Source: a virus (lineage: Duplodnaviria > Caudoviricetes). From it: a stretch of 63,997 nucleotides of DNA. The translations under genes and the position numbers were made by a program. This document shows, piece after piece, positions 26,736-26,944 of this stretch. The DNA is taken from positions 1 to 63,997 of IMG/VR virus record IMGVR_UViG_3300038393_001965; one strand, 5' to 3'. The notes under the pieces were generated by a model, which was given only the letters and a program-made list of their open reading frames with translations, ran no database searches and had not been told where the DNA came from. Each line of letters begins with the position of its first letter. The stretch's first letter is position 1.

Positions 26736-26908
26736 GAGGCGGGCCGGGCGCTAATCCGGCGTCATCTTATGAGCTACGGTGGCCTCTAGGTCAGTGCCTC
26801 CGATGGGACGCCCAACCCCAATCCTCCGGGTTACGGACCCGGTGCTCTTAAGGGCGCTGTCTGCAATCCTAGCCTTGCAAGCGTGTCTGCTTTCCACGCC
26901 GCCACCTC
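26736..26908 (-). ncRNA. tRNA-framed structured RNA (acceptor, D-like and T-like arms around a ~120-nt multi-hairpin insert)
   Basis: Minus strand: GAGGTGG/CCGCCTC; GCGTG-GAAAGCAGA-CACGC; GCCGG-ATTAGCGC-CCGGC. Confidence 0.65.
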
Positions 26909-26915
26909 ACGAACA

Positions 26916-26944
26916 CAAATAGGTCAAAATGCAAGCAGTCGCAA
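26916..26944 (-). promoter_or_regulatory. Candidate sigma70 promoter for the tRNA-like RNA
   Basis: TTGCGA-17 nt-TATTTG, 7 nt upstream of the first base of the acceptor stem. Confidence 0.45.

Follow-up and report, generated by a model that had tools for sequence, protein, structure and literature searches.

The minus strand of positions 26736-26908 in the 63,997-bp IMG/VR virus record IMGVR_UViG_3300038393_001965 (the whole stretch analysed, called the window below) carries an element that we hold, with high confidence, to be a real structured RNA gene. It lies within a 210-nt gap (26719-26928) that interrupts a series of plus-strand tail genes, and it belongs to a large phage RNA family that is widespread, strongly conserved and not filed in Rfam. 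A preliminary description, made from the letters of the window alone, had proposed here a minus-strand non-coding RNA with a transfer RNA (tRNA)-like frame, in which a variable domain replaces the anticodon and variable arms, and this equals the conserved features of the family. That observation is confirmed, comparison with other phages showing it to be real, while the interpretation attached to it is, as a whole, partly supported. The best explanation, which we regard as somewhat probable, is an independent small-RNA gene of a tRNA-like frame family, carried as a cassette in a Mesorhizobium-type siphophage. Its parts are the following.

26736-26908, minus strand: RNA gene delimited by its closing stem, 173 nt, a family member by covariance-model match and minimum-energy fold
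26902-26908, minus strand: 5' strand of the closing stem P1, GAGGUGG, pairing with 26736-26742
26900-26901, minus strand: two-base linker CG, at least 90% conserved in alignment A1
26881-26899, minus strand: 5' hairpin P2 (D-like), GCGUG-GAAAGCAGA-CACGC, an exact 19-mer in at least 120 viral contigs
26761-26880, minus strand: variable core, 120 nt of hairpins, phage-specific, with no homolog found
26743-26760, minus strand: 3' hairpin P3 (T-like), GCCGG-AUUAGCGC-CCGGC, abutting P1, loop conserved and stem covarying
26736-26742, minus strand: 3' strand of P1, CCGCCUC, pairing with 26902-26908
26916-26944, minus strand: candidate promoter TTGCGA-17-TATTTG, read from the sequence, 7 nt upstream of P1

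In the window copy P1 has 7 bp, one of them G-U (GAGGTGG/CCGCCTC), and P3 reads as DNA GCCGG-ATTAGCGC-CCGGC at 26760-26743 of the minus strand. The hexamers are TTGCGA at 26944-26939 and TATTTG at 26921-26916, the latter starting 13 nt before P1. All motifs named in the preliminary description (acceptor-like stem, linker, D-like and T-like arms, hexamers) are found where it had placed them on the minus strand, and the minimum-energy fold of the 173-nt RNA reproduces its drawing, inner hairpins included. It had also called the T-like loop non-canonical and noted that CCA is not encoded, both of which were borne out: the P3 loop AUUAGCGC has 8 nt and is not the canonical 7-nt T loop.

Recurrence and covariation of the frame

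The window sequence taken alone does not set the element beyond chance. Folding of the 210-nt gap is no better than that of shuffles (z -0.14 for the minus and -0.04 for the plus strand), and the exact 173 nt reach a z of -1.20, with 26/200 shuffles folding equally well. ARAGORN makes no tRNA or transfer-messenger RNA (tmRNA) call at 26736-26908, and Rfam 15, its RF00005 and tmRNA models included, gives the element no match at the gathering threshold, nor at E up to 10 over 26400-27300.

BLAST searches with the 210 nt gave no match in cultured phages; nor, with E up to 1e-3, did any of 202 Mesorhizobium genomes match. Against plasmids, a single perfect 24-nt match (window 26880-26903) was obtained, located in an unannotated stretch of a phage-like plasmid of Brucella pseudintermedia. 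The plasmid locus (L021) has the same two hairpins flanking a different middle, and its closing stem is altered on both sides (GAACGG/CCGTTC versus GAGGTGG/CCGCCTC in the window). Soil metagenome contigs join 26760 to 26880/26881 with only 21-23 nt of common sequence per side; these were read as other contigs having only the two conserved hairpins, and were taken as a lead, which was confirmed by other means, and not counted as evidence by themselves. Together, the plasmid match and the contig joints led to a family defined by two hairpins. Contigs of three soil and rhizosphere runs carry the stretch without differences and may be this DNA's own source.

In IMG/VR, the exact P2 19-mer occurs in at least 120 viral contigs, as does the commonest P3 20-mer. 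Places with the 19-mer, window and plasmid included, were passed through a frame filter that demanded a closing stem of at least 5 bp and a perfect 5-bp hairpin abutting it; 117/123 pass, four of those with a mis-assigned 3' end, and six fail. A second, independent sample, seeded on the P3 20-mer, has the closing stem at 108/122 places. The frame recurs in several hundred viral contigs.

Alignment A1 comprises 61 sequences, that of the window among them. Its structure is paired in 93.6% of cells, against 73.3% in shuffles (0/500 reach the value) and 33-43% with the partners slid, and its covariation score is 0.506, against 0.111 in shuffles (again 0/500) and 0.057-0.106 with the partners slid. 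P1 columns 4-10 are 97-100% paired with all four Watson-Crick pair types in use, and changes on both sides occur in 9/10 P1 columns and 4/5 P3 columns; the pairing figures for P1 and P3 are partly built in because the filter required a perfect P3 and at least five P1 pairs. Free of this bias are the slid controls, the P1 columns past the fifth and the P2 result from the P3-seeded sample, where P2 is exact in 58/108 and most others have compensated stems (GCGCT/AGCGC, GCGGG/CCCGC, GCACG/CGTGC, ACGGG/CCCGT and GCATG/CATGC). All three helices, P1, P2 and P3, are shown to covary. The seven innermost pairs of P1, counted in 111 non-redundant members (753 Watson-Crick, 18 G-U, 0 A-C, 6 other), identify the functional strand as the window's minus strand, since G-U pairs are present and A-C pairs absent.

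The preliminary description had proposed a covariance model from phage homologs as a check, and such a model (R1) was built from the 61 sequences of A1. In the window it finds one match only, at 26733-26911 of the minus strand (72.6 bits, E 1.9e-14, model positions 1-135), the window sequence being one of the 61 used to build it. In further sources it gives 92 matches, in 87/93 sources, and it matches four cultured phages at 66-81 bits, namely Pseudomonas phages Persinger, PotUPM1 and Orimi01 and Ochrobactrum phage POI1126. With Pseudomonas phages Orisa01-03 these make up the cultured carriers. The named hosts of carriers are alpha- and gammaproteobacteria (Ochrobactrum/Brucella, Pseudomonas), and the loci range from A+T-rich to G+C-rich. 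Occurrence in cells is rare, with 2/401 sampled alphaproteobacterial genomes positive, both model-confirmed, and the P2 motif has no match in 5,426 E. coli genomes. The member at locus L066 has no BLAST match among cultured phages, and Rfam at E up to 0.5-1 gives no match on the element in 24 loci with a member or relative. No description of this RNA family was found in the literature; the catalogue of 10,006 candidate viral RNAs built from IMG/VR (PMC10690425) may include it.

A divergent relative is present in a Mesorhizobium neociceri genome (G002:C8; L241, 1501-1628), with 41 bits and a shorter 5' loop. Its 3' loop, UUUCGAGU, resembles a tRNA T loop, and ARAGORN and Rfam call nothing there. 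This relative may link the family to tRNA ancestry.

Members share one order of elements: closing stem, CG linker, P2 with loop GAAAGCAGA, variable core, and P3 with loop nnUAGCGn abutting the closing stem. P2 and P3 have 5 bp each, with zero nt between P3 and P1, while P1 has 7-10 bp in 87/111 members (mode 9, range 5-25). The P3 loop is most often AGUAGCGC in the 19-mer sample (48 times), followed by AGUAGCGA (22) and GGUAGCGU (9); the window's variant is present in three members of that sample, the window copy counted in. When the stem-bounded RNAs are folded at minimum energy, P1 reappears in 107/111, P2 in 93/111 and P3 in 90/111. ARAGORN called no tRNA for any member scanned.

The cores, which range from 44 to 270 nt, look unconstrained across phages when their sequences are compared. 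No three 12-mers are shared with any other core by 95/111 of them, no k-mer occurs in more than 21/95 non-redundant cores, and two 17-mers from the window core have only chance matches in viral contigs, with dissimilar flanks. In one subfamily of nine the core is conserved, with compensated pairs. The Rfam tRNA model matches within the cores of L135 (1096-1171) and L129 (1705-1765) at 31.6 and 31.7 bits, so that a tRNA-like sequence is nested there inside a tRNA-like frame.

The window copy as a cassette among tail genes

The surroundings of the RNA gene comprise the following features.

20829-24992, plus strand: open reading frame (ORF) of tape-measure size, named from size and position only
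25654-26718, plus strand: baseplate hub gene, upstream neighbour on the strand opposite to the RNA (PF09931 7e-20, PF09356 1.4e-11)
26720-26940, no strand assigned: inserted block of ~220 nt, absent from relatives in alignment A4, holding the RNA gene with the sequence upstream of it and a new peptidase start codon
26929-27345, plus strand: NlpC/P60 peptidase gene, downstream neighbour (PF00877 3.4e-06)

The same plus-strand tail run contains a DUF2460 gene, between the tape-measure-sized ORF and the baseplate hub, and a host-specificity protein gene beyond the NlpC/P60 peptidase gene. The hub protein has its nearest relatives in four viral contigs and in prophages of three Mesorhizobium species, at 72-83% identity. 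Elsewhere in the window, a tRNA-Asp (GTC) at 40338-40407 is the sole ARAGORN call, with an Rfam score of 29.3 bits at a cut-off of 29.

The window copy is shown by A4, at the level of sequence, to be an insertion, a cassette of ~220 nt. Homology with the relatives ends with the stop codon of the hub gene and is regained near 26943. The RNA sequence is found at this site in none of the seven relatives whose hub proteins are 72-83% identical (four viral, three genomic), and R1 has no match in these seven close relatives of the window phage. At this point the seven have either short gaps of 2-10 nt or unrelated small ORFs. Two of them (L003 and L004) have 2-10 nt between the hub and peptidase genes, and two others have unrelated small ORFs in the slot, of about 43 and 56 aa as judged by eye (L002, 4071-4199; L005, 4075-4242). 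The position of the ancestral peptidase start codon reads ACG in the window; a new ATG at 26929, 13-15 nt upstream and within the inserted block, makes the peptidase longer by ~5 residues. No target-site duplication was seen in A4. The hub-NlpC/P60 junction is thus a variable slot, and because two relatives fill it with unrelated ORFs, the RNA gene resembles in its behaviour a moron cassette that runs counter to the late operon.

Other contents of the gap were considered. ORFs of 24-62 aa are present on both strands, with no ribosome-binding site seen before them; a 47-aa ORF on the plus strand has about 62% G+C at third positions by hand count, which is not a tool result. The reading as a small protein gene was dropped because the RNA family explains the conservation. 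A decayed copy of the small ORFs of L002 and L005 was rejected, with no similarity in A4, as was a host repeat or miniature inverted-repeat transposable element, the gap having no match in the 202 Mesorhizobium genomes or in cultured phages and only the 24 nt in plasmids.

Placement across phages and possible modes of action

Across phages, the RNA is placed as a gene would be, with copies among tRNA genes. ARAGORN finds tRNA genes in 15/120 loci, and in five of these (L066, L050, L074, L044 and L124) the RNA shares its strand with a tRNA that is 1-12 nt away. At L066, where the tRNA array has up to 36 genes, 5474 is the last position of the element and 5476 the first of tRNA-Val. The L044 copy stands between tRNA-Thr and tRNA-Gly; its core nearly equals that of the Brucella plasmid copy, and the 5' strand of its closing stem appears to be replaced by the upstream tRNA. 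Other recurrent settings are antisense among late genes, as for the window copy, positions after early promoters, and the immunity region, where the RNA directly follows a divergent CI-type repressor gene in PotUPM1, Orimi01 and L154. In Persinger it lies 9 nt after the integrase gene, at a convergent junction. Several phages have two or three copies with differing cores. At L195 (11777-13087), three copies on one strand within 1.3 kb form an array, the last one cut by the locus end.

The neighbours are ordinary phage genes from every module. No protein family, among the 25 listed each for Pfam and PHROGs, occurs in more than two of the 114 nearest ORFs, and the 1848 ORFs of 211 loci cluster most often as terminase large subunit (28 loci), followed by integrase (17) and methylase-helicase (15). 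The antitoxin role suggested in the preliminary description is left as speculation; neither a toxin nor any other protein is a recurrent neighbour of the RNA. At L042, a member is preceded on its own strand, ~210 nt upstream, by a Proteo-phage-1 RNA (RF03044, 71.7 bits; 7056-7136). A gene just past 9868 in L046, starting ~27 nt after the member, begins MLILSRRPGERLLIGDEI, which we take to look like the start of CsrA; this was seen once. Hypothetical proteins are annotated over the RNA at L236 (1993-2466, Orimi01_00061; R1 match 1992-2227) and at L238 (2099-2431, PotUPM1; R1 match 1992-2198), and these genes are probably miscalled ORFs.

A candidate promoter had been proposed upstream of the window copy. 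At the family level this finds partial support in -10-like hexamers, which peak 12 nt before P1 (11 members at that offset) and occur within -20 to -7 in 31/108 members; their density, 2.5 per offset at the peak, compares with 0.85 at positions further upstream and with 1.08 downstream. A+T rises from about 42% to 52-60% across -11 to -1 before P1. Judging by this motif, a subset of members would have a promoter of their own. In the window itself TATTTG starts at -13, close to the family peak, but is a poor match and fails the consensus scan.

The copies' positions and their strand bear on whether the element might act as DNA, as a small mobile insertion or a recombination site folding as single-stranded DNA. 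Such an element would agree with a sporadic insertion at a slot that close relatives fill differently, with the copy 9 nt after an integrase gene, and with conserved ends around a variable middle. We consider it very improbable, however, given that G-U pairs number 18 and A-C pairs 0, so that one strand matters, that copies take the orientation of tRNA arrays, and that the -10-like hexamers keep a fixed offset. The window moreover holds a single copy, with no target-site duplication in A4, and the element is rare in cells (2/401 genomes).

For an RNA acting as such, a mechanism that pairs a processing frame with a payload is possible, though we hold it with considerable doubt. The frame would mimic the top half of a tRNA, P1 running into P3 as an acceptor stem runs into a T arm, and P2, after the 2-nt linker, standing in for a D arm. 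Host tRNA-maturation enzymes, RNase P first, would excise a compact stable RNA from any transcript; a conserved host factor would be the docking partner of the invariant loops; and the hypervariable core would serve each phage as its own trans-acting payload. Bacterial RNase P cuts hairpin-like phage RNAs that lack a T loop, such as P4 CI, P1/P7 C4 and phi80 M3 (PMC5499578); its processing of the window RNA is plausible. A more far-reaching version, which we regard as unlikely though worth stating, is a universal phage RNA chassis, in which an invariant frame, processed and stabilised by the tRNA machinery of the host, would dock on one conserved host component and accept a pluggable payload (aptamer, decoy, guide or even tRNA).

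A number of results weigh against this frame-and-payload account or against an independent gene. Strict tRNA mimicry is disfavoured by the variable P1, the 8-nt loop and the missing CCA. P1 is not fixed at the 7 bp of tRNA, and its combined length with P3 is often greater than tRNA's 12-bp ruler; at 8 nt, the loop of P3 is no T loop; and CCA is not enriched near the 3' end (21/111 members). The closing stem is not formed in L044 (150-312), and the P1 and P3 pairing figures owe part of their height to the filter. As to expression, TATTTG in the window lacks the key final T, a sigma-70 consensus scan of 26300-27400 finds no promoter, intrinsic terminators are not enriched downstream (14/146 versus 11 in the control), and there is no RNA run among the 12 runs listed with the stretch. 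The cores could be mere spacers and not payloads. Finally, the co-orientation of the RNA with the next gene in 63/95 cases makes a role in cis possible for many copies.

This last point is also an argument for a cis-acting leader, whose frame would act on its own transcript by binding RNA polymerase against termination or by shielding downstream mRNA from decay. The put RNAs of HK022 reportedly bind RNA polymerase and suppress termination, and binding of such a universal machine would explain the invariant loops. About 20 of the 63 same-strand downstream neighbours start 7-53 nt after the RNA (upstream, 51/86 neighbours share its strand), the -10-like hexamers are placed for a transcription start at P1, and the RNA is the first element after the divergent repressor gene in PotUPM1, Orimi01 and L154. 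The window copy, however, is antisense to all neighbouring genes and so has nothing to lead. Downstream neighbours lie on the opposite strand in 32/95 cases, copies occupy slots within tRNA arrays, and in Persinger the RNA stands behind the integrase gene, where a convergent junction lies. Many copies would be compatible with a cis role, the window copy would not, and as a general account a leader seems rather unlikely.

The position beside repressor genes in three temperate phages equally recalls immunity RNAs of the c4/CI type, in which an RNase P-processed frame would expose core loops that pair with phage transcripts and shut off lytic genes, the cores setting specificity. Heteroimmunity would be in line with the variability of the cores, some phages have more than one copy, and the hairpin-like frame resembles known RNase P substrates of that type (PMC5499578). 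The complementarity expected of such an RNA, and of the antisense regulator suggested in the preliminary description, did not emerge. In the target search proposed there, the best exact match of the window core elsewhere in the window is 10 nt, which 100/100 shuffles equal. Across 127 members the longest antisense match within 1.5 kb downstream and 1 kb upstream averages 8.79 nt, against 8.77 and 8.75 in controls. No family in Rfam, which presumably holds a C4 family, matches at E up to 10, and among the carriers are phages rich in arrayed tRNA genes (up to 36, at L066). An immunity function is improbable.

Location among phage tRNA genes would also suit an anti-defence decoy or sponge, in which the tRNA-like frame or the core occupies a tRNA-acting host enzyme, such as an anticodon nuclease, or a defence sensor. 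Phage tRNAs counter retrons and other defences (PMC11555353), and an arms race would explain the fast turnover of cores. At the ARAGORN 90% threshold, 5/148 cores are tRNA-like against 0 in shuffles, and the Rfam tRNA model matches inside the L135 and L129 cores. The remaining 143/148 cores, on the other hand, are not tRNA-like, the signal at the 80% threshold is weak (15 versus 9 in shuffles), the conserved part has no anticodon loop, the element that known tRNA nucleases read, and no defence or counter-defence gene recurs nearby. The tRNA-nuclease decoy of the preliminary description stays speculative with so few tRNA-like cores, and we give a decoy function of any kind only a small chance.

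Related RNAs and the meaning of the family

Like tmRNA, the family has a closing stem, a T-like arm, a D-like element and a large domain at the position of the anticodon arm; unlike tmRNA, it has no ARAGORN or Rfam tmRNA call, T loop, CCA or conserved core, a tag frame being a feature that was not searched for. The bacterial Y RNA YrlA combines a Ro60-binding stem with D-like and T-like loops of canonical form. As a non-coding RNA with a tRNA-mimicking module that is also present in phages, YrlA resembles the new family (PMC4201824). The phage RNA differs from it in having no Rfam match, and no Ro60 gene is among the families listed for the 114 neighbour ORFs.

The T4 tRNA cluster is said to encode two small stable RNAs, C and D, of unknown function. 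The new family is like these, and like phi80 M3, in comprising small phage RNAs that lie among tRNA genes or are cut by RNase P; M3 is an RNase P-cut small stable phage RNA (PMC5499578). The C4 RNA of P1/P7 and the CI RNA of P4 are likewise small hairpin-like phage RNAs without a T loop (PMC5499578), and some copies of the new family share their location in immunity regions. In contrast to C4 and CI, the family has no Rfam match and no nearby complementary target, as judged by exact matches with flanks of 1-1.5 kb across members; both of its hairpin loops are invariant, its core spans 44-270 nt, and it occurs in tRNA arrays and among late genes as well. Engineered tRNA scaffolds, in which a payload RNA within a tRNA frame is produced stably in bacteria (PMC4402540), are man-made and use true tRNA sequences, whereas the phage frame is natural and would, by analogy, work in the same way.

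If the cores are payloads, the family would offer a ready natural scaffold for stable RNA expression in bacteria. Were the broader chassis to prove true, phages would possess a natural system of RNA-effector cassettes, several to a genome and arrayed next to tRNA genes, and conflict with the host or with other phages would drive the turnover of payloads. For annotation, the gain covers at least two deposited phage genomes, Orimi01 and PotUPM1, in which a hypothetical protein stands over the RNA, and the cultured carriers make the role of the RNA testable now. Few orphan structured RNAs are conserved to this degree, with two hairpins kept letter for letter across phages, and such conservation usually means contact with core cell machinery. 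The binding partner of the frame could reveal a new way in which phages exploit or block the machinery of tRNA processing, translation or transcription.

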